Positions 6,993 through 25,373 of a stretch of DNA of 32,000 nt are shown in pieces. Origin of the DNA: Pyrodictium delaneyi. GTDB taxonomy: Archaea > Thermoproteota > Thermoprotei_A > Sulfolobales > Pyrodictiaceae. The notes under the pieces were generated by a model. That model was given only the letters and a program-made list of their open reading frames with translations, did not search any database and had not been told where the DNA came from. Within the stretch, counting starts at the first letter, position 1. Every line of letters starts with the position of its first letter. The DNA is taken from NCBI RefSeq assembly GCF_001412615.1, contig NZ_CP013011.1:1440001-1472000 (forward strand). The letters run 5' to 3'. Position numbers and translations under genes: made by a program.

Positions 6993-7325
6993 GTGGGCGG
7001 CGAGATGGTTCGCGCGTACCTCCGCATCTATGGGCTTGTACAAGGCGTGTTCTTCCGGGCCACTATGAGGGACGTGGCGCGCCGGCTCGGAGTAACGGGC
7101 TGGGTGCGCAATATGCCGGATGGCAGCGTGGAGGCCGTCGTTGAGGGACCCCGGGAGGCAGTCGAGAAGGTCATACAGTGGGCGCACCGCGGACCCCCGG
7201 CCGCTCGGGTGGAGCGTGTAGAGGTCATCTGGGAGCCCTACCGGGGCGAGTTCCGGGACTTCACTATACGTTACGACCTAGAACCCTACACACCGAGGCC
7301 CATCAAGCAGAGCGGGGAAGGCTAG
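6993..7325 (+). CDS. acyP: Acylphosphatase
   Basis: [40 protein letters not shown] is the classic acylphosphatase signature. The GTG start at 6993 is preceded by the SD-like GAGGTGA at 6980-6986; an ATG at 7005 is an alternative. There is a ~20-aa C-terminal extension. Confidence 0.9.
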
Positions 7326-8636: not shown

Positions 8637-11600
8637 ATGCCGCCAGAGACTAGGCCACGTTGTGGGCCACCGCCTAGCCGTCTCCCGAGCCTGACTGGTA
8701 CTGACGCCCGGCTCCTTGACGAGTACCTGCCGCCGTTGCCTAGTAGGCAGAGGGTCTACCAGCAAGTCGCCGAAGCGCTCAACGAGATGGAGAAGAGCCA
8801 GGACCCGGTGCTAGTGCTCCTCGTGGCCGAGTGGGGCGAGGGGAAGACGAGCATCTACAATGCGCGGGTGAAGCCCTGGCTGGAGGAGAGGGGCTGGAGG
8901 AGCCTAGAAGCCCGCGCTGCCACGGTAATGGCTCATCTCGCCTCGCTGAGGAGCCGTAGCGAGCGCGACCCAGCGTACCGGCTTATGGCCGCGCTGCTCG
9001 CCGCCGGACTCGAGCAGGAGGGCATGCTGGCAGAGCACGGGGCTCCCGATGCTGCTGGGAGCCTCCGGGAATACGTGGATCGTGTCCTCCGCAGCCTCGT
9101 TCCCCGTGGTGGGAAGCTGATAGTCTTCATCGACGAGCTGGAGGACCTCGTGGCCTCGGCCCGGGAGGAGGAGCTAGCAGAGCTAGTCGCCGGGCTCGTT
9201 GGGATACTCAATGGGGACGTCGAGACCGTCTCTGCCCAGTGCCGTGGAGAGGGCTGCATGCCCGGCTCCTTCCATATAGTGGCTAGCCTCACGCCGCCGG
9301 CCTACAGCAGGCTCATGGGTCTCCGCGACTTCGCCACCGTGGCAGCGAGGCTGCGGAGGAGGATACGCAGCGTCTGGATACAGCCACTACCCCGCCGTGA
9401 GGCTTTCGCCTTCCTCGAGAGCCTCGCCCGCTACACGCTCGGCCGGGGGCTCGACGGGCTACTCGAAGACCATAGCCTCGCCCACGCCGTGGTCTCTGGC
9501 ACCCTGGGGAACATGGGGGCGCTCGTCTCGGCGTTCAGGTACCTCGTCTCCTGGGCCCGCGGCCGTGGAGGCTGCGGCGACGGCGTAGCAGTGCTCTCGA
9601 CTGGCGATCTACTCGAGGCATTGCAGGGACTCACTCTGAGCGTTGGGGGCGCCGAGCTGCCAGCCCTCAACAGCGAGGCCTACGCACGGCTAGCCGAGGG
9701 CTGGGGGGCGCGGGCCCGGCTAGCAGGCTTCGACACTGCCGCCGCCCGGAGGCTGCTAGACGAGCTAGTCGCGCGGGGCACTGTCCCTGTCGAGGAGCTG
9801 GCCGTAGCCATTGGGACCCGACTGAGCGTCGTGGCCGAGATGGTGCAAGAGCTCAACGTGTACGGTGAGCAGTCATGGCCGCGCCGGGAGCTAGGCGTAC
9901 AGAGGCTCGTCCATGAGGTCGTGGAGGCTCCAGCAGTCGAAGACGCGTTCAAGCTGCTAAGGGCCGTGGAGCCGGAGGCTGTTAAGCTCCTCCCCCAGCT
10001 GGCTGGAAGGGAGGAGCAGAAGCCGCTAGAGCAGCTACTCGACTCCCTCGTGTACCTCGACTCGGCTGGCCGGCTCGTAGTAGCGGTGCCCGCTGACGAG
10101 CGCATGGCAGCCGACCTAGTGGCGGACGCGTCGCCGCTAGAGCTGAGCCGCGCAGAGGCCGAGAGGCTCGCTGCGCTGCTGTGGGAGGGCATCTTCTCCA
10201 GGTTGCTGGGCTCCGGTGGTGCCCGGGCCTACATGCTCTCGCCGAGGCTCCAGCGTCTACTCTACGTGAGCCCCGAGCTGAGCTACCTAGACTTCATAGC
10301 TGACCGTGTCGAAAGGCTGCAAGTGATACGCCGCGTCTACACCGAGGCAGGCCGAGGCCACCTAGCAGTAGGTGTCTCAGCCCTCCTTGCTGCAGAGGGG
10401 CTGCTGGCAGAGCCGCCAGCACTGCAGGGCGAGGGCGTCGCACGCGCTGAGCTAGTCCTCCAGGGTGGTGCCCGGGCCAGAGTACTCGTCTATGCTGTGC
10501 CGGGCGAGGTAACCGCCGCGGAGGCCCGTAGACTAGAAAGCCAGGTCATGGCTGCACTCATGAGCGGGTGGCGGCCGCACGCGATACTACTAGTACACCA
10601 TGGCGGAGTGGAGCCGCAGGCAAGGCGGCTCCTAGACGCGCTGGAGGGCAAACTCTTCCTAAAGGTGGTAGAGGCCCCGATAGAGTCAATGGTGTCCCGT
10701 GCCCGGCTCCAGGCTCTGGGCGTCAAGCTCGCCGACGAGGCTGGCGGCGTAGAGGAGGCCCTCCGTGCCGCGGTCGAGGCGGCGAGGGACCCGGGGAGGG
10801 CCGAGGAGTTCGGCTTCGACCCGTTGAGGCTCCACTCGCTGCTACGGGAGCTGGCTGAGGAGATACGGCCCCGGGAGAGGCTGGAAAGAGCGCTAGAGGA
10901 GGGCATAGACGGCGCGCCACTAGTGGTGCGGGACCCCCGCCTAGGCTATGACGTGGAGAGGCCTACCGAGCTTAGCGGCGCACTCCGCTACTTCCTCGTA
11001 GTGCCTAGCACCCGTGCATCGGCTCGGGAAGCGCTCCACGCTGCCTACGAATACGTGATGCGGTATCATCTCTACCGGGGCCCCGGCGGCGAGGGCCGGG
11101 GCCTACTAAGCCCGGACATTGACCGCGGCGAGACACAGACCCTGGAGAAGTATATGCTTCTACTAGCCGCCAACGGGTTCCTCGAGAAGAGCAACGGCAC
11201 AGCGAGAATAGACACGTTGAGCCCTATGGAGCGTAGCGTGCTCCGGGCACTGGAGCAGCTCGGCGCCCGTAGCCAAGAGGTCCCCGCATCCAGGGTCTGG
11301 GAGCTGCTGGTAGTGGAAGCACGTAACCCGGGCACTCGGAGGATGCTGCTACAGGCGCTGGCCCACCGCGGCCTCGTGTCCGCTGCCGCCTCGCGGAGGA
11401 TAGACCCGGAGCGCTCCCGGCTAAGGCTACGTGACGGCGAGGAAGCCGCCTGGCAGCTAATACGCGAGGCCCGGGCCATTGTAGAGGAGATCGAGAACGA
11501 CCCCGAGGCAGCCTCCTGGGGCTATGTGGTCTCCGCTAAGGCCCGCGACTACCGCGCCGGCAGCCTAGAGGAGTTCACCCGGAAGATGTACAGCTTGCTA

Positions 11601-13067
11601 GACACAGCCGAGGAGGCCCTAAAGGCTGGCAATACACTGATGGCGCTGAGGCTTGCCCGCACAGTGCTAGACACCGCGGAGTACGTCAGGGACGAGGTCC
11701 TCCGGGGACACGTGAAGCCCGCCGCCGCCGAGGCCAGGAGGTTACGGAGCCTCCTAGAGGACTATGCGGAGAGGATAGAGGAAGCGCGCCGGGCAGCCGA
11801 AAGGATGCTCGAACAGCTGACCGGTAGCCGTGTACAGCTAGAGGTCGAGGGCTTTGAGAGGCTCCAGGAGGCCCTCCACGCGATAGAAGAGATCGAGGAG
11901 TTGCGGCTCAGCGAGAAGCAGCTAGAGGAGGAGGTGCAACAGCTCTGGGAGGAGGCCCGGCGCCGCCACCCCCGCGACCCAGGGCGCCACCTACCATTCT
12001 ACGTCGGTGGCACTGGCCCCGTGCTACACTTCAACTACAAGCTCTGGCTGCTGGCCAAGAGGCTTGAGGAGCTGGGGCTAGCACGGCTAGGCGAGTCTGG
12101 GCTCGAGGAGGGAGAGTGGCTACGCCGCACAATGCAGGCCCTGGAGACGCTGGTCAGCGAGGCCCGGAGGCTGCTAGAAGAGAGTGCTGAGCTACGCCGC
12201 CGCGCTGAGAGGCTAGCCGAGCGGCTGAGGAGGCTCGGCGTAGAGGCCCCCGCGCCGCAGAGCATCGTGCTGCAGGGGCTAAGCGCGCCCGAGAAGCTTG
12301 GCCTCGGCGAGGCCGAGCAGCTGCTCCAGGAGGCCCGGCGCCAGCTAGAGGAGGGGCGGCGCCCGCTACTGGAGCTCGAGGAGCAGGTGGACCGGCTCCT
12401 AGGCGAACTCGAGCAGCTGGAAGAGCTAGCCGCTGAGGCCGAGAGCTGGATACATGGGCTAGAAGAGGCGGCCGAGCGCGCCAGGGCAGCAGGGCTAGCT
12501 GCTAGCCAGAGGCTGCGCGAGGCCCTAGAGGACCTAGCACTGGCACTCGACCAGGCCCAGGCCATGAAGGGCAAGGCCCAGGCAGTGCTACAGCAGCCCG
12601 GCAGACTGCTAGACGCGCTCAGGGATGCCCGCAGCCTTGTCGAGAGCGCGCTCACCCTGCTACGCGACAGTCTAGAGAGGAGCAAGAGGATACACGCGGA
12701 CGCGGTAGCGGAGGCCGAGAGGCAGCGCCAGGCCCTAGAGGCCGAGGCCCAGGCGCTCCGCGAGGCGCTGGAGAGGACCGGGGCAAGGGCGCCACAGCCG
12801 CCACGCAGCAGCGACCCGTTCACCGCTATAGCTGGGCTCCACGAGTACATCGAGAAGCTGCGACGCATGGCGGCTGAGGCGGGGGTACTATCGCAGATGG
12901 AGATGGAGGCCTACCGGGTGGTGGCCCTTGAGCGTAGGAGGCGCGGCGAGCTGCTGCTACGAGAAGCAGCCGAGCTAGTAGCGGAGAGCCTCGGCATAGA
13001 CCTCGAGGAGGCTCGCCGTATACTCATAGCCCTCATCGAGAAGGAGATACTCGAGCCAAGGCTATAG
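8637..13067 (+). CDS. Very large P-loop NTPase (KAP/ORC-like AAA-type N-domain) with winged-helix-like segments and a long C-terminal coiled coil; function unknown
   Basis: Walker A VAEWGEGKTS (nt 8835-8852) and Walker B KLIVFIDELED (nt 9117-9146). An AAA-lid-like segment reads IRSVWIQPLPRREAFAFLESL. HTH-like segments include LLDELVARGTVPVEELAVAIG, SVLRALEQLGARSQEVPAS and the C-terminal LVAESLGIDLEEARRILIALIEK. Residues from about 950 to 1400 are E/R/L/A heptad-rich. Continuous codon-like coding runs over 4.4 kb. The true start could be downstream (in-frame TTG in PPLPS, or the ATG in NEMEKS). Confidence 0.8.
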   Translation: MPPETRPRCGPPPSRLPSLTGTDARLLDEYLPPLPSRQRVYQQVAEALNEMEKSQDPVLVLLVAEWGEGKTSIYNARVKPWLEERGWRSLEARAATVMAHLASLRSRSERDPAYRLMAALLAAGLEQEGMLAEHGAPDAAGSLREYVDRVLRSLVPRGGKLIVFIDELEDLVASAREEELAELVAGLVGILNGDVETVSAQCRGEGCMPGSFHIVASLTPPAYSRLMGLRDFATVAARLRRRIRSVWIQPLPRREAFAFLESLARYTLGRGLDGLLEDHSLAHAVVSGTLGNMGALVSAFRYLVSWARGRGGCGDGVAVLSTGDLLEALQGLTLSVGGAELPALNSEAYARLAEGWGARARLAGFDTAAARRLLDELVARGTVPVEELAVAIGTRLSVVAEMVQELNVYGEQSWPRRELGVQRLVHEVVEAPAVEDAFKLLRAVEPEAVKLLPQLAGREEQKPLEQLLDSLVYLDSAGRLVVAVPADERMAADLVADASPLELSRAEAERLAALLWEGIFSRLLGSGGARAYMLSPRLQRLLYVSPELSYLDFIADRVERLQVIRRVYTEAGRGHLAVGVSALLAAEGLLAEPPALQGEGVARAELVLQGGARARVLVYAVPGEVTAAEARRLESQVMAALMSGWRPHAILLVHHGGVEPQARRLLDALEGKLFLKVVEAPIESMVSRARLQALGVKLADEAGGVEEALRAAVEAARDPGRAEEFGFDPLRLHSLLRELAEEIRPRERLERALEEGIDGAPLVVRDPRLGYDVERPTELSGALRYFLVVPSTRASAREALHAAYEYVMRYHLYRGPGGEGRGLLSPDIDRGETQTLEKYMLLLAANGFLEKSNGTARIDTLSPMERSVLRALEQLGARSQEVPASRVWELLVVEARNPGTRRMLLQALAHRGLVSAAASRRIDPERSRLRLRDGEEAAWQLIREARAIVEEIENDPEAASWGYVVSAKARDYRAGSLEEFTRKMYSLLDTAEEALKAGNTLMALRLARTVLDTAEYVRDEVLRGHVKPAAAEARRLRSLLEDYAERIEEARRAAERMLEQLTGSRVQLEVEGFERLQEALHAIEEIEELRLSEKQLEEEVQQLWEEARRRHPRDPGRHLPFYVGGTGPVLHFNYKLWLLAKRLEELGLARLGESGLEEGEWLRRTMQALETLVSEARRLLEESAELRRRAERLAERLRRLGVEAPAPQSIVLQGLSAPEKLGLGEAEQLLQEARRQLEEGRRPLLELEEQVDRLLGELEQLEELAAEAESWIHGLEEAAERARAAGLAASQRLREALEDLALALDQAQAMKGKAQAVLQQPGRLLDALRDARSLVESALTLLRDSLERSKRIHADAVAEAERQRQALEAEAQALREALERTGARAPQPPRSSDPFTAIAGLHEYIEKLRRMAAEAGVLSQMEMEAYRVVALERRRRGELLLREAAELVAESLGIDLEEARRILIALIEKEILEPRL

Positions 13068-13347: not shown

Positions 13348-14046
13348 TTGCGGGGTAGCCGTAGGCTTGACGAGTATCTGCGTGAGCTCGGCAGCGCTGT
13401 AAGGAACAGACAGGTGGATGTAGAGGCACTCGTGCGACGCATAGTCGAGGAGGCTGTACGGGAGGCCGGCTGCAGCACAGTCGCTTCTCCGGATCCTGGC
13501 CTCCTGGAGAGGCTAGAGCGTATCGAGCAGCGGCTAGAGAATATTGAGAAGAGGCTTGAGCGGCTAGAGCGCCAGGGCAGCGGGGGCTTCTCGAGGAGGG
13601 ATATCGAGGAGCTCGCCCGAGCTATAGCATCCGCCGTAGCTGCTGCCGTCAAGCCCCCAGGAGCCCAGCAGAGCCGGAGAGACGAGCCACGCTGGCTACG
13701 CGCCGTCGTGGAGCGGCTCCGGGGCCGTGGCTATGTTGTTCTCCGCGAGCTTCCGCCGGAGATCCGGGAGGGCTTCGACCCCGAGGATGCCCGGAGACGC
13801 GGCCTAGTAGTAGCCAGTATCGGGGGCGAGACCGTCGTATTCACCAGGCAAGGGCTCCGTGACTTCTTGGAGCGGCTCCGGGGGCTTCGTGCGAGCGACG
13901 AGTATGAGGCAGAGGCTCAGCTGGGCCGGTACAAGCTGCTATTCCGCCTCCTCCGGGAGGAGGGCCTCGTCTACTACGCTGGGCCGGGTCGCGGCTGGGT
14001 GCTCCAAGGCCAGCTAGAGAGACTAGCCCATGAGGAGCTTGTATAG
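13348..14046 (+). CDS. Hypothetical coiled-coil protein (possible partner of the giant NTPase)
   Basis: A 232-aa ORF with no internal Met codon, so it must start at TTG 13348 or GTG 13414. It carries the perfect heptad stretch LLERLERIEQRLENIEKRLERLERQ. The C-terminal half (RGYVVLRELPPEI...VVFTRQGLRDFLERL) looks globular. Confidence 0.55.
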   Translation: MRGSRRLDEYLRELGSAVRNRQVDVEALVRRIVEEAVREAGCSTVASPDPGLLERLERIEQRLENIEKRLERLERQGSGGFSRRDIEELARAIASAVAAAVKPPGAQQSRRDEPRWLRAVVERLRGRGYVVLRELPPEIREGFDPEDARRRGLVVASIGGETVVFTRQGLRDFLERLRGLRASDEYEAEAQLGRYKLLFRLLREEGLVYYAGPGRGWVLQGQLERLAHEELV

Positions 14047-14553
14047 CAGGAGGCCGGCCACCGTCTTCCCGTCCCGTATCTCGCCCCGCCTTATCATCTC
14101 CAGGGCCTCGTCCATGGAGACCCAGAGGGTCTCTATCAGCTCGTCCTCCTCGGGCCTGGCCCCGGCCTCGCGCAGGTCACCAGCCGCGTAGATGTACATC
14201 ACCTCCGTCGAGATCCCAGGGCTAGTATAGAACCTGGCCAGTAGCCGGAGCCAGCCCGGCTCGTAGCCTGTCTCCTCCACCAGCTCCCGGCGCGCTGTCT
14301 CCTCCGGCGACTCTCCCGGCTCAAGGGTGCCGGCGGGTATCTCGTAGAGCCACTCTCCCACACTAGGACGATACTGGCGCTCCAGCAGCACCCTTCCAGA
14401 ACCGTCGACAGCCACTATCGCCACTGCGCCGGGATGACGCAGCGTATCATAGACCTGCCTTCGGCCGCGTATGACCGCCTCTACTTGGCCGAATACAAAG
14501 CGCCTGCCACGGCAAAGCTCGCGAAACCCCAGGATACGCGGCTCTACCTCCAC
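14023..14553 (-). CDS. Nudix hydrolase (ADP-ribose pyrophosphatase-like)
   Basis: The Nudix box GTLEPGESPEETARRELVEETGY matches GX5EX7REUXEEXGU. It has a convergent 24-nt 3' overlap with the previous gene. Confidence 0.9.
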   Translation of the reverse strand: MEVEPRILGFRELCRGRRFVFGQVEAVIRGRRQVYDTLRHPGAVAIVAVDGSGRVLLERQYRPSVGEWLYEIPAGTLEPGESPEETARRELVEETGYEPGWLRLLARFYTSPGISTEVMYIYAAGDLREAGARPEEDELIETLWVSMDEALEMIRRGEIRDGKTVAGLLLYKLLMG

Positions 14554-15099: not shown

Positions 15100-16719
15100 G
15101 TGCTCCTACACGGCTCAAAAACTGCAGCAATGCTAACTATAGCACTGATACTAGCCGCGTCATCAACTATGCTTGTAAAGCATTACACTACAGCAACCAT
15201 CTACGAGGATAGGTCTACTATTGTTACGGCAACTCGGCCTCTGATATCGAGAGGCCCACCGGTACTAACGATAGAGGTTAGCGACCAACAAGGAAGACCA
15301 GTAGACTTCTACGCTACGATAAGCATGCCTGCTGCCAACGGCAGTCTCATACACAGTAAGCCAGTGCGCGGTCATGGTCAAGCCACGATAGAGCTAACGA
15401 AGTACGCCGAGGAGCTATCAAGGCTGTTAGACTCGATAAACGCGGCAGGCAAACGGCTCCAAAAGATAGGGATACTAGTACTCCTAACCAGTGTAGAGAT
15501 AGAGAACGGCAAACCAGTAGTAGTCACCGATGCGTTTACCGTACCCATTAGCCTAGACGTGTTGAAGCCAGGCTACCATATAAAGGCAGTACACAAGTTC
15601 ACCCCCAAGGCCAAGACTGAGGCTAAGCAGGCGAAGCCACAGATACAGCTAGCAGCACCAAAACTAGACCTAGCCACGAGCCCCGTAGAGCCCACAGTCA
15701 ACGGACCATGCGTAGACTACGGCTTTAGCGTCACATGCTACTACTGGGAGCTAGACCAGATAGTATACCCTCCAAGCGGCGTAGACAACACCGTAAACAT
15801 GCCCTTCACAATAGTTGATGTAGCCCCAAGCAACGGCATCGACTCGCCAGCACAGAAGACAGAATCTGTGATAGTAAGTAACGTTATACGACTCCAGCTA
15901 TACACTATAGAAGAAGTAGAGATAGGGCTAGTAGTGGACTTCACACTGCTAGGCGGGTCTGTCACGATACCAGGACCAGCATTCGTAGACAGTATAAGAA
16001 ACTATGATACCTCCATCAAGACACTCCTAGACGTACAGTGTACATTCCTGAATACCCTCAACAGCCTGCCTGGGTCAAAGTGCACGCTGAATGGTATCGA
16101 TGCAGCTATCCCCGACTACTATTATGCAGCATACCTGGCTACTGGTGCTGAGGGTAGGCTATGGGTAGCAAAATATAACCTTATAGCTGAGACCTGCGAC
16201 CTGGACGGCATTTGCTACACTGAGAGTATTGGTAGCAACTATGCAGCATACTTTATACCCATCTACAATATCTTCGGGTACTTCGAACCCTACGTGGAGG
16301 TACAGGACGATTACTACAACTATGGTGGCTACCTCTACCGTGTGCTCGACGACTTAAGAAGCAAAATGGAAACAGCCACTATACTGAGCGGATACTATAA
16401 CGATAGACAATTCAACTACTATAGTGTAATCGTTGACGTGAATGGAGAGACGTACATGTCGGTATCTCTCCCCGTAGGCTCCGTAGCGGCTATAGTCTCG
16501 GGACTCAACCTGCCAATGGCTGCTACAACACTCAGCTTTACAGTAACATCTAGCGTGTACTACATTACCGCGTATGAAAGCCTATCGACTGTAACTATAG
16601 ATATAGATACGTCGGTATACCCAGGTATGCAGTATAGCAGTGAAGTCCTGAAGACCGATATGATGGTTGTACCAGATAACGGCGTCTTCACAATCCCGTT
16701 GATGGCCTTAAGACCGTGA
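15100..16719 (+). CDS. Secreted or membrane-anchored hypothetical protein (orphan, Tyr/Asn/Thr-rich)
   Basis: N-terminal hydrophobic anchor AAMLTIALILAASSTMLV. Three closely spaced Cys pairs (CVDYGFSVTC, CTFLNTLNSLPGSKC, CDLDGIC) suggest extracellular disulfides. GC is lower than the flanks. I recognise no family. Confidence 0.65.
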   Translation: MLLHGSKTAAMLTIALILAASSTMLVKHYTTATIYEDRSTIVTATRPLISRGPPVLTIEVSDQQGRPVDFYATISMPAANGSLIHSKPVRGHGQATIELTKYAEELSRLLDSINAAGKRLQKIGILVLLTSVEIENGKPVVVTDAFTVPISLDVLKPGYHIKAVHKFTPKAKTEAKQAKPQIQLAAPKLDLATSPVEPTVNGPCVDYGFSVTCYYWELDQIVYPPSGVDNTVNMPFTIVDVAPSNGIDSPAQKTESVIVSNVIRLQLYTIEEVEIGLVVDFTLLGGSVTIPGPAFVDSIRNYDTSIKTLLDVQCTFLNTLNSLPGSKCTLNGIDAAIPDYYYAAYLATGAEGRLWVAKYNLIAETCDLDGICYTESIGSNYAAYFIPIYNIFGYFEPYVEVQDDYYNYGGYLYRVLDDLRSKMETATILSGYYNDRQFNYYSVIVDVNGETYMSVSLPVGSVAAIVSGLNLPMAATTLSFTVTSSVYYITAYESLSTVTIDIDTSVYPGMQYSSEVLKTDMMVVPDNGVFTIPLMALRP

Positions 16720-16948: not shown

Positions 16949-17560
16949 ATGCCTACATGCTCTGAGAGATGTGGCCCCAAGCACCAGCTTAGCGGAGGGT
17001 TGGGTACGATCTTGTCTAGTAGAGTTGTCCTAGTACCGTTCCACCTGGCCAGGCTTGGTAAGAGGATAGTGGGCCTAGACGCGTTCTTCTGGCCAAGCCT
17101 AGAGAAGAGGTACCGGGTAGTTCTCCTAGTACACCCTGCTGAGAGGCTAGGAGAAGCTGCCATAGAAGGCTGTCAACTCCCTGCACAAGTGGATATAGGA
17201 AGTCAAATCGGCGAGATACGGGAAATCGCGCAACGTAAGCCAGAGGGACCTCGGGCACCACGTGCTACTATGCGGCGGAGGTTTGCCTGGTTCCTGTTGC
17301 CACTCAACATGCTCCGCGATATGCTGCGCAGCGAAGCCGAGGAGTTCCAGTTATCGGAGGAGCTGCAAGCTGTGGGCCTTGCCAAGATTCTTAGAGAGTT
17401 GGAGCCTCTCGGGGAGACCCGTTACGCAGTCTTCGAGCCAGTGGAGGAGGATGGCGAGAAGCTGCTCTTACCCGTTGACGATCATATGAGGAGGATATAT
17501 CGGGAGCTAGCACGCCGCGACCAGGGCTATAGAAGGGCAGCAAGCCAGGCAGGATGCTAG
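16949..17560 (+). CDS. Hypothetical protein; only the C-terminal ~97 aa (from ATG 17270) look protein-like
   Basis: MRRRFAWFLLPLNMLRDMLRSEAEEFQLSEELQAVGLAKILRELEPLGETRYAVFEPVEEDGEKLL has ordinary composition. The upstream 107 codons are doubtful. No family recognised. Confidence 0.35.
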   Translation: MPTCSERCGPKHQLSGGLGTILSSRVVLVPFHLARLGKRIVGLDAFFWPSLEKRYRVVLLVHPAERLGEAAIEGCQLPAQVDIGSQIGEIREIAQRKPEGPRAPRATMRRRFAWFLLPLNMLRDMLRSEAEEFQLSEELQAVGLAKILRELEPLGETRYAVFEPVEEDGEKLLLPVDDHMRRIYRELARRDQGYRRAASQAGC

Positions 17561-17878: not shown

Positions 17879-19028
17879 GTGCGCTATGTTAAAAGACTTA
17901 GAGGCATGAGCGATTTCGCCGTATTCCTCGCCTTGTTAGTGTTGCTCATACTCCTCATCATCCTTGCTTCCCGGGCTAGCCTGCCCTACACCCCTTCTAT
18001 GACTGCCACAGTTACTGTCACCAACACCGCAACATTTGATGAATCTGTAACTAGTACAAGAGCCAATCTGCAGGAGAAAGCTACAACAAAGACGCTAACA
18101 TTTTACAGAGACGCGGACAATGACAGAGACTGTAACAGCTACCGTTACAGTGACAGCCACTATAACGGCTACAAAGATTGCTGCTACTGCCTCCTCCTGG
18201 TGCAGTATCGCTTGCTACTACCTGACAAATATCGAGTCGGAGCCTTTACTGGCCAGGCACTGGACTGTAGCAGTGATAGAGCCAGATGAAGCAAATGACA
18301 CACTGCTAATGGAGGTGAGGAAACGCAGCGACCTGGTTCTCGCCTACCTAAACGCCGGGTATGCCGAGGAGTGGAGGAGCTACTGGGACGTAGTCAAAGA
18401 TAAGCCCTGGATCCACGGCACCACCATGTACGAGGGCGAATACTATGTGGAATATTGGCACACTGAGTGGAGGAAGATACTTGTAGAGTTAGCAACGAGA
18501 TACCTGGCTAGGGGGTTTCAGGGCATCTATCTAGACAACATCGATGCAGCCGAGCTGCTTGCTATAGAGAGACCCTCTTGGGCTCAGGGAGTAGATCCAC
18601 GAGAAGCCATGATAGATCTCGTCTGTAACGTGTCCAATGCCGTCAAAGCCGTAGACCCTAAGGCAAAGGTGTACCTCAATATCGGTGGTGCAGTGAACCT
18701 GCTGTACAATGACCGCCTCCTAGGCTGCATAGATGGGGTGCTACGAGAGGAGCTGTGGAGCCACCCAGGCCCAAGCGGACCCGAGCCACAGGACCCTTGG
18801 GAAACTCTCGCAGCGCTCGACGCGCTAGCCTATGCACACAGCCACGGGAAGACCGTGCTAGTGGCGGATCCCGTGAACGACTTAAAGGAGGCTTGGAGTT
18901 TCTGTGTAAAGGCCTGGAGCCATGGCTTTATTCCAGTTCCGCAGCCAGCCTGGGCTCTTGACTACAGCGCTCCACCTCCACCAGTTTGGTGCAGTTGCAG
19001 CACCTCAATGGTCAAAAGCAACAAGTGA
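17879..19028 (+). pseudogene. Frameshifted gene: signal anchor plus Thr/Val-rich stalk (frame A) joined to a GH114/TM1410-like glycoside-hydrolase TIM-barrel domain (frame B, +1)
   Basis: Frame A (17879..18289) encodes FAVFLALLVLLILLIILA plus TATVTVTNTAT, then degenerates into C/Y/D/R-rich nonsense. Frame B is open from 18099 and continues the stalk (TETVTATVTVTATITATK) into the catalytic domain. The only place to switch is the TTTT run at 18101-18104. Confidence 0.7.
18120..19028 (+). CDS. GH114-like (endo-alpha-1,4-polygalactosaminidase / TM1410-like) hydrolase domain ORF
   Basis: VLAYLNAGYAEEWRSYW, YYVEYWHTEWRKIL and ARGFQGIYLDNIDAAE match my recollection of the GH114 family core (..YlsiGeae.yR.YW.. 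/ ..GfDGvyLDnvD..). There is no signal peptide and no SD before ATG 18120. Confidence 0.7.
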   Translation: MTETVTATVTVTATITATKIAATASSWCSIACYYLTNIESEPLLARHWTVAVIEPDEANDTLLMEVRKRSDLVLAYLNAGYAEEWRSYWDVVKDKPWIHGTTMYEGEYYVEYWHTEWRKILVELATRYLARGFQGIYLDNIDAAELLAIERPSWAQGVDPREAMIDLVCNVSNAVKAVDPKAKVYLNIGGAVNLLYNDRLLGCIDGVLREELWSHPGPSGPEPQDPWETLAALDALAYAHSHGKTVLVADPVNDLKEAWSFCVKAWSHGFIPVPQPAWALDYSAPPPPVWCSCSTSMVKSNK

Positions 19029-19301: not shown

Positions 19302-20438
19302 ATGTGGACTAGCAGGGTAATAGCCATAGCTATAGTTGCTTTCATCGCTATCATAGCTGCCTATATGCTTACAAGCGGAGGGGGAGAACCAGCCTCTACC
19401 GCAACACCTATGACCACCACTATCACAGTCACCAAAACCGCTACGACTACTATGACCACTACCGCGGTCGAGACCACTACAGTGTCAAAGACGGTGACAT
19501 TCACCCAGACTGTGACCCAGACAATACCACAGGTAGAAGAGAAGCTAGTCCTAGTCGATGCGCTAGGCAGAACAGTCGCTGTCGAAAAACCCGCTGAGCG
19601 TGTCGTCGCTCTAGCGCCCTCGATAACCGAGGATATTTGCTCTCTTGGGCTCTGCAGCCGGCTGGTAGGCGTCGACAGCTTCTCCAGGGATGTGCCCGGC
19701 GTCCCCGAGGGCGTCGTGGATGTTGGCGGCTACTGGCAGCCTAGCAGCGAGAAGGTAGCCGAGCTAAAGCCGGACCTAGTACTGGCATGTAGCGGTGTAT
19801 CCGCCCAGGAGCAGATGGCACAGCAGCTCGAGGGGCTCGGTATCCGAGTATTCTTCCTTCGCTGCGACCAGGCCCGGGGCTTCGACGACATCTACTGGGA
19901 TCTACGTGCTATAGCGACACTACTGGGCAAGCCCGAGGCTGCCGATAAGGTGATAGAGCTGATGGAAGAGAGGGTTAGCGCGCTAGAGAAGAAGCTAGCC
20001 AATACTACGAGACCTGGTGTAGCCCTGCTAGTTTACCTCCAGGAGAACGGCGCCTGGGTAGCCGGCGGCGGCACATTCCACGACACAGTGATAGCTGTTG
20101 CTGGCGGCTCTAACGTGTTTCACGGTCTCTACGGCTGGCAGATGGTTGGCTACGAGGAGCTAGTATCCCGGGACCCCGACTACATAATAGTGACCGGTAT
20201 GACTCCTGCTGACTTCAACCGCACGATAGCGCTCGCGGAGAAGACGCCACTACGGGAGACTAAGGCCTTCCAGGAGGGCCATGTATGTGTCCTCTACGGC
20301 GCCGCCACCGACGCGCTTAACAGACCATCACCAGGCGTAGTAGACGCCGCCTATCTGTTGGCCTCGATACTGCACCCCGACCTAGTGGAGCCGCCGGAGA
20401 GGCTAGCCGGCAACTATACTTGTATGCACCAGGGCTAG
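19302..20438 (+). CDS. ABC transporter substrate-binding protein (BtuF/FepB-like, iron-siderophore/cobalamin class), membrane-anchored with a Thr-rich stalk
   Basis: TM anchor VIAIAIVAFIAIIAAYML and stalk TTTITVTKTATTTMTTTAVETTTVSKTVTFTQTVTQT. The binding domain reads RVVALAPSITEDICSLGL...VGVDS...LKPDLVLA. Confidence 0.85.
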   Translation: MWTSRVIAIAIVAFIAIIAAYMLTSGGGEPASTATPMTTTITVTKTATTTMTTTAVETTTVSKTVTFTQTVTQTIPQVEEKLVLVDALGRTVAVEKPAERVVALAPSITEDICSLGLCSRLVGVDSFSRDVPGVPEGVVDVGGYWQPSSEKVAELKPDLVLACSGVSAQEQMAQQLEGLGIRVFFLRCDQARGFDDIYWDLRAIATLLGKPEAADKVIELMEERVSALEKKLANTTRPGVALLVYLQENGAWVAGGGTFHDTVIAVAGGSNVFHGLYGWQMVGYEELVSRDPDYIIVTGMTPADFNRTIALAEKTPLRETKAFQEGHVCVLYGAATDALNRPSPGVVDAAYLLASILHPDLVEPPERLAGNYTCMHQG

Positions 20439-20463: not shown

Positions 20464-21441
20464 TTGCACACGCGGCGTGTTTTTGCAGCACTAGTCGCCT
20501 TGGCGGCACTGCTCTTCCTAGCAGGTCTAGCCGTGGGCCCGGCCGGGTTCCGTAACCCCCTGGACCCTGGGTCCTGGGACCTGGTGCTCAGGCTCCGGCT
20601 GCTCCGGGGTCTTCTCGCTCTAGGCGTGGGAGCGGCGCTGGGGGCGGCCGGGGCCTTCATGCAGTATAGCGTCTCGAACCCATTGGCGAGCCCGAGCATC
20701 CTAGGAGTCTCGCCAGGCGCGCTCGCCGCCAGCGTCCTAGTAATGCTCGCGTGGAGGGGCTCGCCACCGCTCGGAGCCCCTCTCCTTGCCGGGATGCTGG
20801 GAGGCTTCGCTGCCTACGCCGCCTCGGCCGCCCTAGCCGCCCGGCTCGGGTTCACAAGGGTAGGCCTAGTCCTAGCAGGCGTAGCTGTCTCCAGCACACT
20901 CTCCGGCCTCTCGAGCCTTCTCGTTCTCCTGGCTGAGGCGAGGCTCCGTCTACCCGCCTCATTGATGCTTCTCGGCAGCTTCGCCTACGCAACCCCCGAG
21001 ACCGTCTACGTCGCTCTAGCCTCATCTGGTGCCGGCCTAGTCGCGGGACTCGCCCTAGCCCGAGGACTCGACGCAATATCCTACGGAGACGAGACAGCAT
21101 CCGCTATGGGATATAGCCCGGGGCAGATCCGGCTCGCTGCGAGCCTCACCTCAGCCGCCCTGACCTCTGTTTGTGTCTACGCCGCCGGGATAGTGGGGTT
21201 TGTCGGCCTCGTAGCCCCTAACACCGCGCGTCTCCTTGTAGGCGGCCATCCTAGGGCTAGTTTGCCCGCCTCCCTACTCCTCGGCGCAGCCACCACGCTG
21301 GCTGCAGACCTGGCCGGGAGACTCACAGCGCTAGCTCTAGGGCTTGGTGAAGTACCGGCTGGGCTCGTTACAAGCGCCGTGGGGGGTCTGTTCCTGGCCT
21401 ACATGCTCCTTCGGGGAGCCGCTGGGGGAGAAGAACAGTGA
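20464..21441 (+). CDS. FecCD/BtuC-family ABC permease
   Basis: A 325-aa polytopic protein rich in A/L/G, with typical FecCD length and position. It overlaps the ATPase gene by 4 nt. Confidence 0.85.
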   Translation: MHTRRVFAALVALAALLFLAGLAVGPAGFRNPLDPGSWDLVLRLRLLRGLLALGVGAALGAAGAFMQYSVSNPLASPSILGVSPGALAASVLVMLAWRGSPPLGAPLLAGMLGGFAAYAASAALAARLGFTRVGLVLAGVAVSSTLSGLSSLLVLLAEARLRLPASLMLLGSFAYATPETVYVALASSGAGLVAGLALARGLDAISYGDETASAMGYSPGQIRLAASLTSAALTSVCVYAAGIVGFVGLVAPNTARLLVGGHPRASLPASLLLGAATTLAADLAGRLTALALGLGEVPAGLVTSAVGGLFLAYMLLRGAAGGEEQ

Positions 21442-22220
21442 CAGCAGAACTGAAGGCTCTAGGGGTATACGCTAGGCATGGTAGCAAGGTCGTACTGGAA
21501 GACGTCACCATGGAGGCACGGCCCGGCGCAGTCACAGTAGTCCTTGGACCCAACGGTGCGGGGAAGACCACACTCCTCAGAGTGCTTGCTGGCCTCCACG
21601 TCCCGGCCCAGGGCCGTGTCTTCATCGGGAACCGGGACGTCTACAAGCTACCCCGCATGGAGAGAGCCAGGCTTATCGCCTACGTTCCGGCTGTGCTTGA
21701 ATCCCCAGGGCTCGGCCAGACCGTGGAGGAGTTTGTCGCTGCTAGCCGGTACCCGCTCCACCCTGGGCCCCGCCTAGGCCCCCAGCCAGGTGACCTGGAG
21801 GAGGCGCAGAGGCAGCTCCGCCGAGTAGAGGCGGAGAAACTAGCCCAGCAGAGCCTCGGAAAGCTGAGTAGTGGCGAGAAACAACGTACACTCCTAGCCC
21901 ATGCATTAGCCCGTGACGCTGATGTACTGCTCGTAGACGAGCCTACTAGTTTCCTCGACCTGAGGGGCCGGCTGCTCGTCTACAAACTGCTCCACGAGGA
22001 GGCCCGCCGGGGCCGCGTCGTGGTAGCGGCGACCCACGACATGATGCTTGCAGGGCTCTATGCTGACCAGGTGGTTCTCCTTTCCCAGGGCCGGATAGTA
22101 GCCCAGGGACCTCCCAAGGATATACTCCACCCCCGGCTTCTAGAAAGAGTGTTCCAAGTCAAGGTTGAAATGACTAGACTCGGTGACAAGCACATACCGG
22201 TACCTGTAGACATTACATGA
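21438..22220 (+). CDS. ABC transporter ATP-binding protein (FepC/BtuD-like)
   Basis: Walker A GPNGAGKTT, signature LSSGEKQR, Walker B VLLVDEPTSFLD and H-loop ATHDM. Confidence 0.9.
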   Translation: MTAELKALGVYARHGSKVVLEDVTMEARPGAVTVVLGPNGAGKTTLLRVLAGLHVPAQGRVFIGNRDVYKLPRMERARLIAYVPAVLESPGLGQTVEEFVAASRYPLHPGPRLGPQPGDLEEAQRQLRRVEAEKLAQQSLGKLSSGEKQRTLLAHALARDADVLLVDEPTSFLDLRGRLLVYKLLHEEARRGRVVVAATHDMMLAGLYADQVVLLSQGRIVAQGPPKDILHPRLLERVFQVKVEMTRLGDKHIPVPVDIT

Positions 22221-23191
22221 CTGTCGCAACGAGCGTTGCGTGCCCTCGTCGAAGGGGTTCCCGCTTGCCGCGGCTATGTATAGACGTTGCTTGGCTAGAC
22301 CTCGACCTCTCCATGTACCCTAGCTTCGTTTCATCACTCTATAGCTACGCTGAGCCTGGCCGCTGGATAAAGATCCTGGGCTATGGGAGAGGCCACGTTC
22401 TTGTAAAGCGTGGCCCGCTACTATGCTGTGAGGGCCCCGGTTGCGGCACTGAGATGCTCCATTACTTGTCGGGCCGGTGGTGCCTCGACGTTTGCCGCCG
22501 GGGGCTCCTTAGCCGAGCCCTACCGCTGCGGGAGTACTACCTCGGTCTTGTAGTGGCGGCTGCACCGCCCCGGGATCGGCTCCTCGTCGCAGCAGCTGTC
22601 GTGCTGTCGTGGAGGACCCGTTATGCTAGCAATGTTAGGCGCTGGATGCGGATAGTGTTCGACGGGGTCGTTGACGAGGAGACAGGGGAAATAGACTTAG
22701 AGAAAGCCGTGGAGAGGGCCGCGAGGCTCCCGAGTCCACAGCCACGACGGCTAGCCCGGCTTCTACCAGCGCTGGCCAAGGCGCTGGAGGACTTGGACGA
22801 CCCAGTCGCGCTTCGGAGAAAGCTCCTGGAGCTATCCGGCGTGGGGCCAAAGACCGCCGACGCTATACTATTGTTCACCGGTGTCTCGAGCGCAGTAGCG
22901 CCAGGTGATGTGCATCTCCAGCGCTTCGCGGCCAGGGTGCTTGGGCTAGAGAGGCTCCGGCCCGCGTCCAAGGACATGTGCCTGCGCGGGGGCGCCTGGT
23001 GCCCTGAGTGCCCTCTACGCGGCGGCTGTCTCCAGGGACGCATAGTAGAGACATATGGTGGCGCGGCGGGGCTTGTCCAGACCATTGCTTACGTTTATGG
23101 GAGCCTTGGCGGGAAGAGCTGGCGGGAGAAGCTCCCCCGGGTTCTCGAGCAGTTCTACACAAGCTCCGGGGGTACCTCGCCGGGCCGGTAG
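22217..23191 (+). CDS. HhH-GPD superfamily DNA glycosylase with an EndoIII-type [4Fe-4S] cluster loop and a Cys-rich N-terminal extension
   Basis: The helix-hairpin-helix is LSGVGPKTADAILLF, followed by APGDVHLQRF (catalytic Asp). The Fe-S motif CLRGGAWCPECPLRGGC is exactly C-X6-C-X2-C-X5-C. An ATGA overlap joins it to the upstream ABC ATPase. Confidence 0.8.
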   Translation: MTVATSVACPRRRGSRLPRLCIDVAWLDLDLSMYPSFVSSLYSYAEPGRWIKILGYGRGHVLVKRGPLLCCEGPGCGTEMLHYLSGRWCLDVCRRGLLSRALPLREYYLGLVVAAAPPRDRLLVAAAVVLSWRTRYASNVRRWMRIVFDGVVDEETGEIDLEKAVERAARLPSPQPRRLARLLPALAKALEDLDDPVALRRKLLELSGVGPKTADAILLFTGVSSAVAPGDVHLQRFAARVLGLERLRPASKDMCLRGGAWCPECPLRGGCLQGRIVETYGGAAGLVQTIAYVYGSLGGKSWREKLPRVLEQFYTSSGGTSPGR

Positions 23192-23961
23192 GCCTTCCTA
23201 GGCTTCAGCCCAGTACGGCGGAGCAGCTCCTCAACGTGCCGGTATAGGATGACGTACTCGGGGTCAATGTTCTCCGCGAGGGCTGGATGTATGCGGCGCA
23301 GCTTCTCCCGTATCCTCTCGACGCCCTGCTCATCGGTGAAGCTAAGCATGACTGCCGGGTAGACTTCCTCACCCGGCTCGAGCCCGTAGGCGACCAGCAG
23401 CTCTAGGGCTTTTAGCTGGAGCGTCCAGGCCTCTGGCCTGGCCCCCGTCAGCATGGCGAACTCTTCGGGGCTTGTACCCTTAATTGAGACGCGTACCTCT
23501 ATCCCGGCTCCGTGGAAAGAGGCGAGCTTCTGGGCATACTCCTCCCGGGCCCCTATGAGGATCCCGTTAGTCTCCACTACGAAATGAATGCCCTCGGCAG
23601 TTACAGTCTCCATCACCTCGACGAGATGGTCGAAGCCCAGTGTAGGCTCGCCGCCGCTCAGCCTGGCTTGTTTCACGCCGCTCTGCCGGGCCAGCTCGAT
23701 GAGCCTTGACGCCGCCTCGCCTGGCGACAGCAACTTTCCAGCTCTGGGGTTACCCCATGTAAACTTGTGGGCCCAGCAGAACCCACAGCGAAGGATACAG
23801 CCAACCACATCGCCCGTCACTATACCTCCATACCAGCGGTCTCTGCGGAACCGGTAGTAGCGGCGTAGCTGCACCCCGTCTCGTCGTGGCGCCACAACAT
23901 GCTCAAGCCACTCAGCTAGAGCTACAGGGTCATAGCCTCGGCTCCTGCCTTGTTGTACCAT
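23155..23961 (-). CDS. Radical SAM enzyme (unassigned subfamily)
   Basis: The CILRCGFC motif (CX3CX2C) is followed by SGGEPTL (SAM-binding GGE motif). The protein is 268 aa, and its 3' end overlaps the glycosylase gene by 37 nt (convergent). Confidence 0.8.
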   Translation of the reverse strand: MVQQGRSRGYDPVALAEWLEHVVAPRRDGVQLRRYYRFRRDRWYGGIVTGDVVGCILRCGFCWAHKFTWGNPRAGKLLSPGEAASRLIELARQSGVKQARLSGGEPTLGFDHLVEVMETVTAEGIHFVVETNGILIGAREEYAQKLASFHGAGIEVRVSIKGTSPEEFAMLTGARPEAWTLQLKALELLVAYGLEPGEEVYPAVMLSFTDEQGVERIREKLRRIHPALAENIDPEYVILYRHVEELLRRTGLKPRKAYRPGEVPPELV

Positions 23962-24137: not shown

Positions 24138-24273
24138 GGTGGCGCCCGCTCCCCTCGGGGGCATGAAGACCGGGCTACCAGCCCGCAGGGCCAGAGGCCG
24201 CTTCTCTGGCTCGGCCTCTGGGATGCGGAGGAAACCTCGGGGGCGACCCCCGGGGGCCAGTGCGGGCGCCGCC
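24138..24273 (+). ncRNA. Candidate structured RNA (cis-regulatory leader of queD-queE, or an independent sRNA): closing helix plus four hairpins
   Basis: P1 pairs GGTGGCGCCCGC 24138-49 with GCGGGCGCCGCC 24262-73 (12 bp, one G-U). H1 is 24150-61 (4 bp, CUCG loop). H2 is CGGGC-UACCA-GCCCG at 24171-85. H3 pairs CCAGAGGCCG with CGGCCTCTGG at 24191-24221 (10 perfect bp, 11-nt loop). H4 is 24235-55 (9 bp, one G-U). All G-U pairs become A-C mismatches on the other strand. Confidence 0.45.
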
Positions 24274-24352
24274 TTTATCAACAGTAGAGGCCGCCACTGA
24301 CGCCTTGGCAGAGAAGGAACATCGAGCGCATGCTGCGGGGTGCCACCATAAG

Positions 24353-24709
24353 TTGCCGTTCCGCGTGAAGGCATGCACTATGTTCTCTGCTGCACACCGT
24401 ATCGAGGGACATCCACGCTGTGGAAGGATCCACGGACACAACTACCGTGTATGCATAGTACTCCGCGAGGACAAGCCCATGGGGATAGACCTGGACGAGC
24501 TCGAAGAGTGGCTCCAGGAACACGTCTTCAAGAGGTTCGACCACCAGTACCTCAACAAGCTACTAGCCGAGGACGGAGAGCTACCAACAGTGACCAGCGA
24601 GGACCTCGCCCAGATGATAGCTAGTTGGCTTGAGAAGAGCTACCCGGGGATGGTCGAGCTTGTCGAAGTCTGCGAGACCCCCCAGCTCTGTGTCGAGTAC
24701 ATCCCCTAG
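24353..24709 (+). CDS. queD: 6-carboxy-5,6,7,8-tetrahydropterin synthase (QueD / PTPS family)
   Basis: FSAAHRIEGHPRCGRIHGHNY carries the Cys and His-x-His Zn/catalytic motif. The track ORF starts at 24260, but the conserved fold begins at FRVKACTMFSAAH. An in-frame TTG at 24353 is preceded by the SD-like GGGGTG at 24337-42 and gives a typical ~118-aa QueD. Confidence 0.85.
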   Translation: MPFRVKACTMFSAAHRIEGHPRCGRIHGHNYRVCIVLREDKPMGIDLDELEEWLQEHVFKRFDHQYLNKLLAEDGELPTVTSEDLAQMIASWLEKSYPGMVELVEVCETPQLCVEYIP

Positions 24710-25373
24710 GCTCCGCGTAGTAGAGATCTTCACTAGCCTGCAGGGCGAGGGCCCATTTACGGGTACCCGCAGCGTCTTCGTCCGCCTCGCGGGCTGTGAT
24801 CTACGCTGCCCGTTCTGCGACACCACATACAGCCTAGACCCCCGAACCGGGAAGCCCATAGCCATCGAGGAGATAGCCATTATCGTCGAGAGGGCGCGTC
24901 CTAGCCTGGTCGTAATTACTGGGGGTGAGCCTCTGCTACAGAGGAGAGGGGTCAACGAGCTAGCCAGGCTCCTAACCGAACAGGGGTATAGGATGCAGCT
25001 CGAGACTAATGGCACATTACCCGCACCTAGACCAGGAGAACCCCTCTATGCTGTACACCACGTGGTCTCACCGAAGGATGTACCAGTAGCTGTTGAGGGT
25101 GCGAGGCTCCACCCTTCCTGGGTAGAGGCTTCCCGGGCTACGGGTAGGGTTTGGTTCAAGTTCCTAGCCTCTACGAGGGAGCACGTAGAGGCCATAGCGG
25201 TATACGTGAAGGAGAAAGGTATACCCCGGGACCATGTCTACATTATGCCACTGACAAGGGATGGGATGTCCATGGATGAGCTACTCAAGCTCCACCAGCA
25301 GGTGGCGAAACTGGCACTAGACTATGGGTTCAACTTCAGTCCCCGACTTCACCTCCTTCTCGGACTACGCTAG
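24690..25373 (+). CDS. queE: 7-carboxy-7-deazaguanine synthase (QueE, radical SAM)
   Basis: VEIFTSLQGEGPFTGTRSVFVRLAGCDLRCPFCDT is the QueE N-terminal signature, followed by ITGGEPL. The track ORF begins at 24630. An in-frame GTG at 24690 (overlapping the queD end by 20 nt) is the more plausible start. Confidence 0.85.
   Translation: MSSTSPRLRVVEIFTSLQGEGPFTGTRSVFVRLAGCDLRCPFCDTTYSLDPRTGKPIAIEEIAIIVERARPSLVVITGGEPLLQRRGVNELARLLTEQGYRMQLETNGTLPAPRPGEPLYAVHHVVSPKDVPVAVEGARLHPSWVEASRATGRVWFKFLASTREHVEAIAVYVKEKGIPRDHVYIMPLTRDGMSMDELLKLHQQVAKLALDYGFNFSPRLHLLLGLR

Follow-up and report, generated by a model that had tools for sequence, protein, structure and literature searches.

The 8-oxoguanine (8-oxoG) glycosylases are split in reviews into the OGG1, OGG2 and AGOG groups, none of which carries a metal cluster, and iron-sulfur (Fe-S) loops are regarded as typical of one side of the HhH-GPD superfamily, that of Nth and MutY. 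In human OGG1 (hOGG1) the residues Q315 and F319 read and stack on 8-oxoG and the strictly conserved Gly42 of the alphaA-alphaB loop is the N7-H sensor for this base, and N7-H is read by Ogg2 via the carboxylate of its C-terminal lysine and by AGOG via different pocket residues (PMC3397491). A crenarchaeal Fe-S enzyme of the superfamily has been described in Saccharolobus islandicus, where Sis-HhH-GPD (SiRe_0278) acts as bifunctional alkyl-base glycosylase with a four-cysteine Fe-S loop (PMC11754123). These systems are compared here with a gene of Pyrodictium delaneyi that is located in a window of 32,000 nucleotides (nt), i.e. the whole stretch of DNA that was analysed (contig NZ_CP013011.1, positions 1,440,001 to 1,472,000). 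The deduced protein is probably a stand-alone base-excision DNA glycosylase/apurinic-apyrimidinic (AP) lyase of an uncharacterised HhH-GPD family, and its position behind the btuFCD importer genes would be accidental. The features of the gene on which this assignment is based are listed below in coordinates of the window, whereas residue numbers (Lys212, Asp231 etc.) follow a numbering that begins at ATG 22217.

22265..23191, plus strand: most likely form of the glycosylase coding sequence, with a TTG start, 308 amino acids (aa) and a TAG stop at 23189-23191
22265..22552, plus strand: N-terminal beta-sheet/helix domain resembling the OGG1 A-domain (residues 17-112), which holds DLDLSMYPSF (22298-22327)
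22424..22495, plus strand: N-domain cysteine set C70, C71, C76, C89 and C93 (patch LLCCEGPGCGTEMLHYLSGRWCLDVC), a candidate second metal site of the Pyrodictiaceae-like clade
22832..22876, plus strand: helix-hairpin-helix (HhH) motif LSGVGPKTADAILLF, with Lys212 at 22850-22852
22898..22915, plus strand: loop A-P-G-D-V-H, with Asp231 at 22907-22909 and His233
22979..23029, plus strand: internal four-cysteine (Cys4) motif CLRGGAWCPECPLRGGC, C255-X6-C262-X2-C265-X5-C271, an Fe-S loop pattern in a non-canonical position
23069..23092, plus strand: helix G285-L-V-Q288-T-I-A-Y292

That the gene is real is supported by 21 close homologues and by 467 cluster representatives (50% identity level) detected at E<=1e-3 in an exhaustive profile search. 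At E<=1e-10 the search retained 138 representatives, nearly all of them about 300 aa long and matched over their full length; this number is a lower bound of the family size. A word-indexed homologue search with the family profile returned only 30 proteins owing to its prefilter, so that the exhaustive search is the informative one. The named members belong to the Pyrodictiaceae, the Desulfurococcales, Ignisphaera, Thermofilum pendens, the Fervidicoccaceae, Thermoprotei metagenome-assembled genomes (MAGs) and the Methanomethylicota, all of them Thermoproteota. In the databases they are labelled as 'hypothetical', 'HhH-GPD domain' or 'endonuclease III' and once, in the case of Thermofilum pendens, as 'N-glycosylase/DNA lyase'. 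A search of the literature on Fe-S-containing OGG1-like archaeal enzymes, on glycosylases of Hyperthermus and Thermofilum and on HhH-GPD surveys revealed no account of the family or of one of its members.

Residue conservation was counted over 103 family representatives. The hallmark of the HhH-GPD superfamily, an HhH followed by a Gly/Pro-rich loop with an aspartate, is present in the deduced protein, and its LxGVGxK...PxD pattern aligned to both Nth and OGG1; the Pfam HHH model matched with a sub-threshold score of 23.5 bits. Lys212 is invariant (103/103) and aligns with K249 of hOGG1 and K120 of EndoIII. The equally invariant Asp231 aligns with D138 of Nth and lies in a loop corresponding to P-V-D268-V-H270 of hOGG1, in which His233 is conserved in 77% of the representatives. 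Lysine and aspartate are separated by 19 residues, in line with the spacing of about 18 that characterizes the Nth-type bifunctional dyad. In a first-pass annotation made from the sequence without database searches, the lysine had already been recognized as typical of bifunctional glycosylase/lyases and the aspartate as conserved, and their invariance across the family bears this out. The helix from G285 to Y292 was identified by hmmsearch and hhalign as the counterpart of G312-W-A-Q315-A-V-L-F319 in hOGG1, with Gln288 being invariant and Tyr292 conserved in 96% of the representatives; W143 and G55 are invariant as well. The alignments with hOGG1 thus yield the residue pairs K212/K249, D231/D268, H233/H270, Q288/Q315 and Y292/F319, the last of which represents a conservative exchange of Phe for Tyr. 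The Y203 equivalent of hOGG1 is kept in most of the family and replaced by a proline in the window protein, and the NNN motif of hOGG1 aligns with R-T-R here (n-T-D in the family), an Nth-like LS-x-x-TD standing in its place.

The N-terminal third of the protein is conserved across the 103 representatives, the DLDLSMYPSF motif being nearly invariant. An AlphaFold model of the full protein (predicted local distance difference test, pLDDT, 90.7; predicted template modelling score, pTM, 0.89) showed mouse and human OGG1, MBOgg1 (4ejy) and Clostridium acetobutylicum CacOgg (3i0x) as top fold matches in the PDB. These OGG1-type matches comprise 311-342 aligned columns with template modelling (TM) scores of 0.52-0.65 and include the N-terminal third. 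When modelled alone, the N-domain formed a beta/alpha unit of about 95 residues (pLDDT 83), and a Foldseek comparison of this unit with the PDB placed OGG1 chains in all top 50 positions (probability 0.75-0.98, E 0.02-0.1, TM about 0.47). The models thus indicate that the N-terminal third is a family-wide domain shaped like the A-domain of OGG1. The proposal of the first-pass annotation that the N-terminal 120 residues are without an EndoIII counterpart therefore holds true, but the segment is a family-wide OGG1 A-domain-like fold rather than an extension, and the modelling recommended at that time gave a confident structure with OGG1-type matches. A search of a viral structure library with the model returned no meaningful match, and therefore nothing suggests a phage or defence origin. 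The monofunctional AlkA, in which an N-terminal beta domain also precedes the HhH-GPD core, is devoid of the catalytic lysine, which is invariant in the present family, and no AlkA chain was found among the top 50 fold matches.

The internal Cys4 motif, the four cysteines of which are invariant (103/103), is located between the helix following the GPD motif and a helix resembling alphaN/alphaO of OGG1, where the loop of hOGG1 is free of cysteines. It begins 24 residues past Asp231 (22-28 in the family) and precedes the last core helix with Q288 and Y292; the spacing in the family is 4 or 6, then 2, then 5 residues. The cluster loop of E. coli Nth aligned by hhalign with another motif of the family, an optional C-terminal C-X4/6-C-X2-C-X5-C that is missing in the window protein. 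This C-terminal motif was found in 57 of the 103 representatives. Ten others, including the window protein and its Pyrodictiaceae-like relatives, have no C-terminal motif but a complete A-domain cysteine set, 36 have neither, and none has both. Accordingly, the C-X6-C-X2-C-X5-C pattern of the earlier annotation is exact but does not occupy the EndoIII position, and the N-terminal cysteine-rich patch noticed at the same time is present and conserved among the Pyrodictiaceae (at least 90% in close homologues).

By its pattern and invariance, the internal motif most likely holds a [4Fe-4S] cluster, and the A-domain cysteines of the Pyrodictiaceae probably form a second metal site that replaces the canonical C-terminal cluster loop. 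Since the internal and the C-terminal motifs share the pattern C-x-x-C-P-L, an internal duplication of the cluster loop is suggested as the origin of the two.

Most members of the family, for example P0077 of Thermofilum pendens and P0115 of Ignisphaera, carry two Cys4 motifs of the same spacing, one internal and one at the canonical Nth position. Such two-motif members may bind two clusters; we know of no description of two clusters in one HhH-GPD glycosylase.

The relation of the family to described subfamilies was examined with profiles. The family profile matched EndoIII (6e-9), MBOgg1 (8.5e-9) and hOGG1 (4.7e-8) in the PDB, and hhalign assigned probabilities of 97.0% to the alignment with E. 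coli Nth and of 96.5% to that with hOGG1. The sequences of hOGG1 and E. coli Nth that entered the hhalign comparisons and the shuffle test mentioned below were typed by hand; over its C-terminal half, that of hOGG1 matches the alignment obtained from the PDB. By profile comparison the family is equally distant from EndoIII and OGG1. The classification as an EndoIII-type Fe-S DNA glycosylase in the first-pass annotation is therefore apt as regards the HhH-GPD type with its Lys/Asp dyad and the Fe-S-type Cys4 motif, but too narrow as regards EndoIII, since fold and layout agree best with OGG1. The profile comparison proposed there placed the protein in the superfamily and, with equal scores for EndoIII and OGG1, singled out no subfamily.

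These data also bear on the explanation that the protein is simply a strongly diverged orthologue of canonical Nth, acting on oxidised pyrimidines, or of canonical Ogg1, acting on 8-oxoG opposite C. The Lys/Asp dyad and the FCL-type cysteine motif are Nth-like, the A-domain, H233, Q288 and Y292 are OGG1-like, and the database name of the Thermofilum pendens member mentioned above is in line with such an orthology. Set against this are the score of 27.5 bits for NCBIfam TIGR00588 (ogg), which is far from the cut-off of 397.85 and results from a match to residues 199-246 only, and an NCBIfam scan of the window protein that listed no match to an nth model. Pfam HhH-GPD, Ogg-HhH and EndIII_4Fe-2S each matched only sporadically, in 4-5 of the 103 members at E<=0.1 and never below 4.6e-4, and OGG_N is absent from the match list of the family. 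Since an A-domain is missing in Nth and a Cys4 motif in OGG1, and since the equivalents of Gly42 and R154/R204 of OGG1 are not conserved here, a diverged orthologue of either enzyme is considered unlikely.

Several observations weigh against the assignment of the window protein as an OGG1-like glycosylase/AP lyase. No Pfam or NCBIfam model scored above threshold for the window protein; PF00730 (HhH-GPD) was not reported for it and was detected in only 4 of the 103 members at E<=0.1, with a best E-value of 0.016. The likeness of the N-domain to the A-domain comes from predicted structure only: in a pairwise comparison with the N-terminus of hOGG1 it scored 30, the mean of the shuffles being 25 +/- 4 and 75 of 500 of them scoring as high (not significant), the hhalign alignment to hOGG1 left the A-domain unaligned, and OGG_N is missing from the Pfam matches of the 103 members. 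No glycine was found at the Gly42 loop of OGG1, where residues 34-36 between the first two helices, together with their surroundings, read Y-P-S-F-x-x-x-L throughout the family, the residue equivalence at this place being approximate. R154 and R204 of hOGG1 are not conserved either; in the hhalign alignment, R154 faces a variable residue and R204 faces Gln175. In the lack of Gly42 and of the opposite-base arginines lies an argument against a simple OGG1 specificity, so that the specificity is uncertain. What is stated on activity, metal content and substrate is prediction throughout.

With these points in mind, a base-excision DNA glycosylase/AP lyase is still the favoured assignment, and a damaged purine of the 8-oxoG or Fapy type is the putative substrate favoured by the OGG1-like residues of the pocket. 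By homology, the HhH hairpin and the loop held by the Cys4 motif would bind the DNA backbone, and the damaged base, once flipped out, would enter a pocket that has Gln288 and Tyr292 as lining residues and is shut off by the OGG1-like A-domain. Asp231 would activate Lys212 for an attack on C1' and the formation of a Schiff base, whereupon release of the base would be followed by beta-elimination.

More tentatively, and with clear doubt, the family might constitute a new HhH-GPD branch that unites an OGG1/AlkA-type A-domain with Nth-type Fe-S loops, with two clusters in most members and a second site rebuilt from A-domain cysteines in the Pyrodictiaceae. If this is true, the family would represent a living intermediate between Fe-S-containing Nth-like and cluster-free OGG1-like glycosylases and could be the principal glycosylase for purine lesions in many hyperthermophilic Thermoproteota.

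The genomic position of the gene had given rise to a different explanation, according to which an EndoIII-type enzyme is the translationally coupled fourth cistron of a metal-chelate/cobalamin importer operon and either is co-regulated with iron supply for its cluster or serves a purpose other than repair that is connected with the imported substrate. The features that bear on this explanation are:

19302-20438, 20464-21441 and 21438-22220, plus strand: genes of a BtuF/BtuC/BtuD-like importer (Pfam Peripla_BP_2, FecCD and ABC_tran; NCBIfam)
22217..22264, plus strand: in-frame upstream extension from the ATG, probably an untranslated spacer; open only in the window and in L012 and unconserved in the homologue alignment

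The open frame extends on the plus strand from 22217 to 23191, and its ATG shares the ATGA at 22217-22220 with the TGA of btuD. Five orthologous loci (L003, L013, L023, L024 and L025) contain an in-frame stop 14-21 codons 5' of DLDLSMYPSF, and their sole possible starts lie 8-12 codons ahead of this motif; the corresponding distances in the window are 11 codons for TTG 22265 and 27 codons for ATG 22217. The equivalent TTG is the start called in the 93%-identical metagenomic relative L012, and Hyperthermus butylicus has a TTG there as well. All 21 close homologues (45-93% identity) start about 16 residues later than the long open reading frame (ORF), and residues 1-17 of the long form are unconserved in the homologue alignment, low in pLDDT and modelled by AlphaFold as disordered. 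Among the 16 extra codons, 3 differ from L012 as read by hand from a DNA alignment, all of them non-synonymously, whereas the two proteins as a whole share 93% identity. ATG 22217 is a by-product of the end of btuD, where the last threonine codon is followed by the stop (ACA TGA). TTG 22265 is located 44 nt after the btuD stop on the same strand. These findings indicate that the true start is most probably TTG 22265 and that the overlapping ATG is probably unused, and therefore the ATGA overlap and translational coupling are unlikely. Met33 (ATG 22313) was rejected as a start, since a strand modelled with confidence and the L-D-L-S stretch, itself nearly invariant, are found 5' of it.

Frame and overlap were thus described correctly in the first-pass annotation, but the use of the ATG, to which the orthologues do not map, is not confirmed, and a fourth cistron coupled via ATGA is unlikely. 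A true start further downstream had been named beforehand as an outcome that would remove both the overlap and the N-terminal extension; with TTG 22265 as the probable start, the overlap would be removed but the family-wide N-terminal domain would be left intact.

The comparison of gene order leads in the same direction. Apart from the window, only the similarly arranged L012 has the btuFCD genes directly ahead of the glycosylase gene, so that the conserved operon junction, the lack of which had been named in advance as refuting the link, does not exist. In Hyperthermus (L011), where btuFCD is nearby, a Robl_LC7 (Roadblock/LC7) gene and about 700 nt are interposed between btuD and the glycosylase gene, and in L001 the importer is found at a distance of 8 kb. 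Counting these two, the importer is separated or absent in L011, L001, L002, L003, L013, L020, L022, L023, L024, L025, L004, L005 and L015-L018; no importer was found at the locus in L022, L023, L020, L002, L013, L025 or any distant member. Upstream contexts include a TIM gene in L020 and unrelated genes in L013. Among distant members, the gene of Ignisphaera lies behind a ROK kinase gene and faces EMG1, that of L005 lies behind an HD protein gene and faces ETF, and that of L004 lies behind an MFS gene. In L022 and L023 the gene order is NUDIX (minus strand), a 185-aa gene and the glycosylase gene, and the window retains both a homologue of the 185-aa gene (about 17009-17560) and a NUDIX gene (14026-14553). 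It follows that, relative to L022/L023, the GH114 and btuFCD genes are part of a block specific to the lineage, with the 185-aa gene on one side and the glycosylase gene on the other; the btuFCD part is shared by Hyperthermus. The place of the glycosylase gene behind btuFCD is therefore a lineage-specific accident of gene order and not a functional link.

In favour of the operon, the ATGA, the common strand with btuFCD, the like arrangement of L012 and the proximity of btuFCD in Hyperthermus can be cited, and no obvious AT-rich promoter box is present in the 44-nt spacer, so that the gene may be co-transcribed with btuFCD in this genome. With the family N-terminus at TTG 22265 and the junction unconserved, a coupling to the importer is largely refuted already and must be regarded as highly improbable; since the link is not conserved, it would not matter.

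Some further observations concern transporter genes. In L004, a Pyrodictium MAG, the longest ORF of a 35%-identical member (7012-7938) shares 4 nt with the end of the gene for the MFS transporter; since this transporter is of another class than the importer, their proximity is probably coincidental. The btuD orthologue of Hyperthermus butylicus (L011, 5914-6697) was called as two overlapping ORFs of 54 aa and 225 aa, which suggests a frameshift or sequencing error. The BtuF-like (19302-20438) and GH114-like (18120-19028) proteins of the window contain long Thr/Val-rich stretches past an N-terminal hydrophobic segment that resemble surface linkers.

On its downstream side, the glycosylase gene meets the neighbour that is most often kept within the Pyrodictiaceae:

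23155..23961, minus strand: radical SAM gene, 268 aa, with CX3CX2C (Pfam Radical_SAM)
23155..23191, strand not applicable: convergent overlap of the glycosylase and radical SAM genes, 37 nt, coding for the disordered tail SSGGTSPGR (pLDDT <50)

A radical SAM orthologue (66-77% identity) adjoins the glycosylase gene in convergent or tandem orientation in 9 of the 12 distinct loci of the Pyrodictiaceae clade that were examined. Genes for QueD, QueE, a prephenate dehydratase and a thioredoxin-reductase-like protein are located further downstream, and QueD/QueE follow the radical SAM gene in the window, L011, L001 and L025. The adjacency persists without QueD/QueE in L020 and L022, and in L020 despite different outer flanks. 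From such an arrangement it could be argued that the enzyme acts together with the radical SAM protein and QueD/QueE in the excision or exchange of a modified base, of the 7-deazaguanine type or another, from DNA or tRNA; P0019, the sole close homologue without any N-domain cysteine, is also without a radical SAM neighbour. All these loci, however, belong to one family-level clade in which NUDIX, TrxR and GCV_H genes are syntenic too, and the tandem form is explained by the in-place inversion of one gene. Furthermore, the radical SAM gene is missing in L023, although the glycosylase with its cysteine patch is encoded there. This radical SAM protein occurs widely in the Thermoproteota, with 983 homologues at E<=1e-10 and about 50% identity across Sulfolobales, Desulfurococcales, Ignisphaera and Fervidicoccaceae, and the orthologue carried by Ignisphaera sp. 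MAGs lies outside the glycosylase locus that was examined. The connection with 7-deazaguanine genes, mentioned as speculation in the first-pass annotation, did not survive this comparison, as the loci of L020 and L022 are devoid of QueD/QueE, and HhH-GPD enzymes are not known to perform base exchange. Accordingly, the pairing of radical SAM and glycosylase genes is regarded as synteny, the link to QueD/QueE is only local synteny, and a joint role in base excision or exchange appears very improbable.

The homologues of the radical SAM protein are annotated merely as 'radical SAM protein', and its NCBIfam and PDB matches are weak and generic (MoaA/QueE-like); it represents a widely conserved crenarchaeal enzyme without a functional name that is often encoded beside QueD/QueE. 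An identity with RaSEA of the archaeosine pathway found no footing in these weak, MoaA-like matches, and PMC11298593 offers no sequence handle for it. The tail SSGGTSPGR of the glycosylase is the antisense of the conserved C-terminus (..RPGEVPPELV) of the convergent radical SAM gene. It occurs only in loci with the 37-nt overlap (L011, L012, L022 and L024) and is missing in loci without such an overlap (L001, L025, L002, L020 and L023); the apparent conservation of the tail is therefore probably imposed by the opposite strand. The longest ORFs of QueD (24260-24709) and QueE (24630-25373) overlap by 80 nt, a PTPS domain beginning at residue 40 of the QueD ORF, so that the listed starts (GTG 24260 and TTG 24630) are probably too far upstream. 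The QueD and QueE genes of Hyperthermus show a similar 70-nt overlap.

Elsewhere in the window, an ORF of 1476 aa (8637-13067, plus strand) has no Pfam match at E<=1e-3, and two further plus-strand ORFs (15100-16719 and 16949-17560) are without a Pfam match as well. The ORF at 16949-17560, the true start of which is probably near 17009, encodes the homologue of the conserved 185-aa protein whose gene lies directly ahead of the glycosylase gene in L022 and L023 and before btuFCD in Hyperthermus. A tRNA scan of the window detected no tRNA genes.

Taken together, the enzyme class is known, and new are the unusual combination and placement of modules in an uncharacterised family, which would be relevant for the classification of HhH-GPD enzymes. 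An OGG1 layout with OGG1-type pocket and catalytic residues and with one or two Fe-S-type Cys4 motifs would blur the division between OGG1 and Nth/MutY. The family would also provide a testable case for how a cluster loop was gained, duplicated, moved or lost, for the contribution of Fe-S clusters to damage search in hyperthermophiles and for the enzyme that removes damaged purines in lineages of the Thermoproteota with poorly charted repair. As Hyperthermus butylicus, Pyrofollis japonicus and Thermofilum pendens are cultured hosts, the protein is accessible to experiment.

In comparison with the described systems, the OGG1 subfamily, comprising human and mouse OGG1, the Clostridium acetobutylicum Ogg and MBOgg1 of Thermoanaerobacter (4ejy), shares with the family the three-part layout of about 300 aa, in which an N-terminal beta-sheet A-domain precedes the HhH-GPD core. 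The Lys/Asp dyad, the histidine two residues past the aspartate and the C-terminal pocket helix G-x-x-Q-x-x-x-aromatic are common to both. The family differs from OGG1 by the invariant Cys4 insertion at the Cys-free loop and the frequent second Cys4 motif, by Y-P-S-F in place of a Gly42 counterpart, by the lack of conserved R154/R204 and by an A-domain that is undetectable by sequence. Nth, as represented by E. coli Nth and Geobacillus EndoIII (1p59/1orn), aligns with the HhH-GPD core from the LS-x-x-TD helix through the GPD loop and likewise contains the catalytic lysine and aspartate and the motif C-X4/6-C-X2-C-X5-C, often with C-x-x-C-P-L. However, Nth is a two-domain protein of about 210 aa without an N-terminal beta domain, which is present in the window protein of 308 aa, and its cluster loop follows the last helix, whereas the invariant motif of the family is internal. 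The archaeal Ogg2 and AGOG enzymes are HhH-type bifunctional 8-oxoG glycosylases with a Lys/Asp dyad as well, and the Ogg2 chains 3fhg and 9o00 were weak profile matches, but both groups are devoid of the A-domain and the Cys4 motif (PMC3397491). Finally, Sis-HhH-GPD carries its Cys4 motif at residues 203-219 and appears to be a shorter protein, an N-terminal domain not being mentioned in its description; it has Ser152 in place of the catalytic aspartate and groups with HP0602/MagIII-like enzymes (PMC11754123), whereas the family represented in the window combines an invariant aspartate and lysine with an A-domain.

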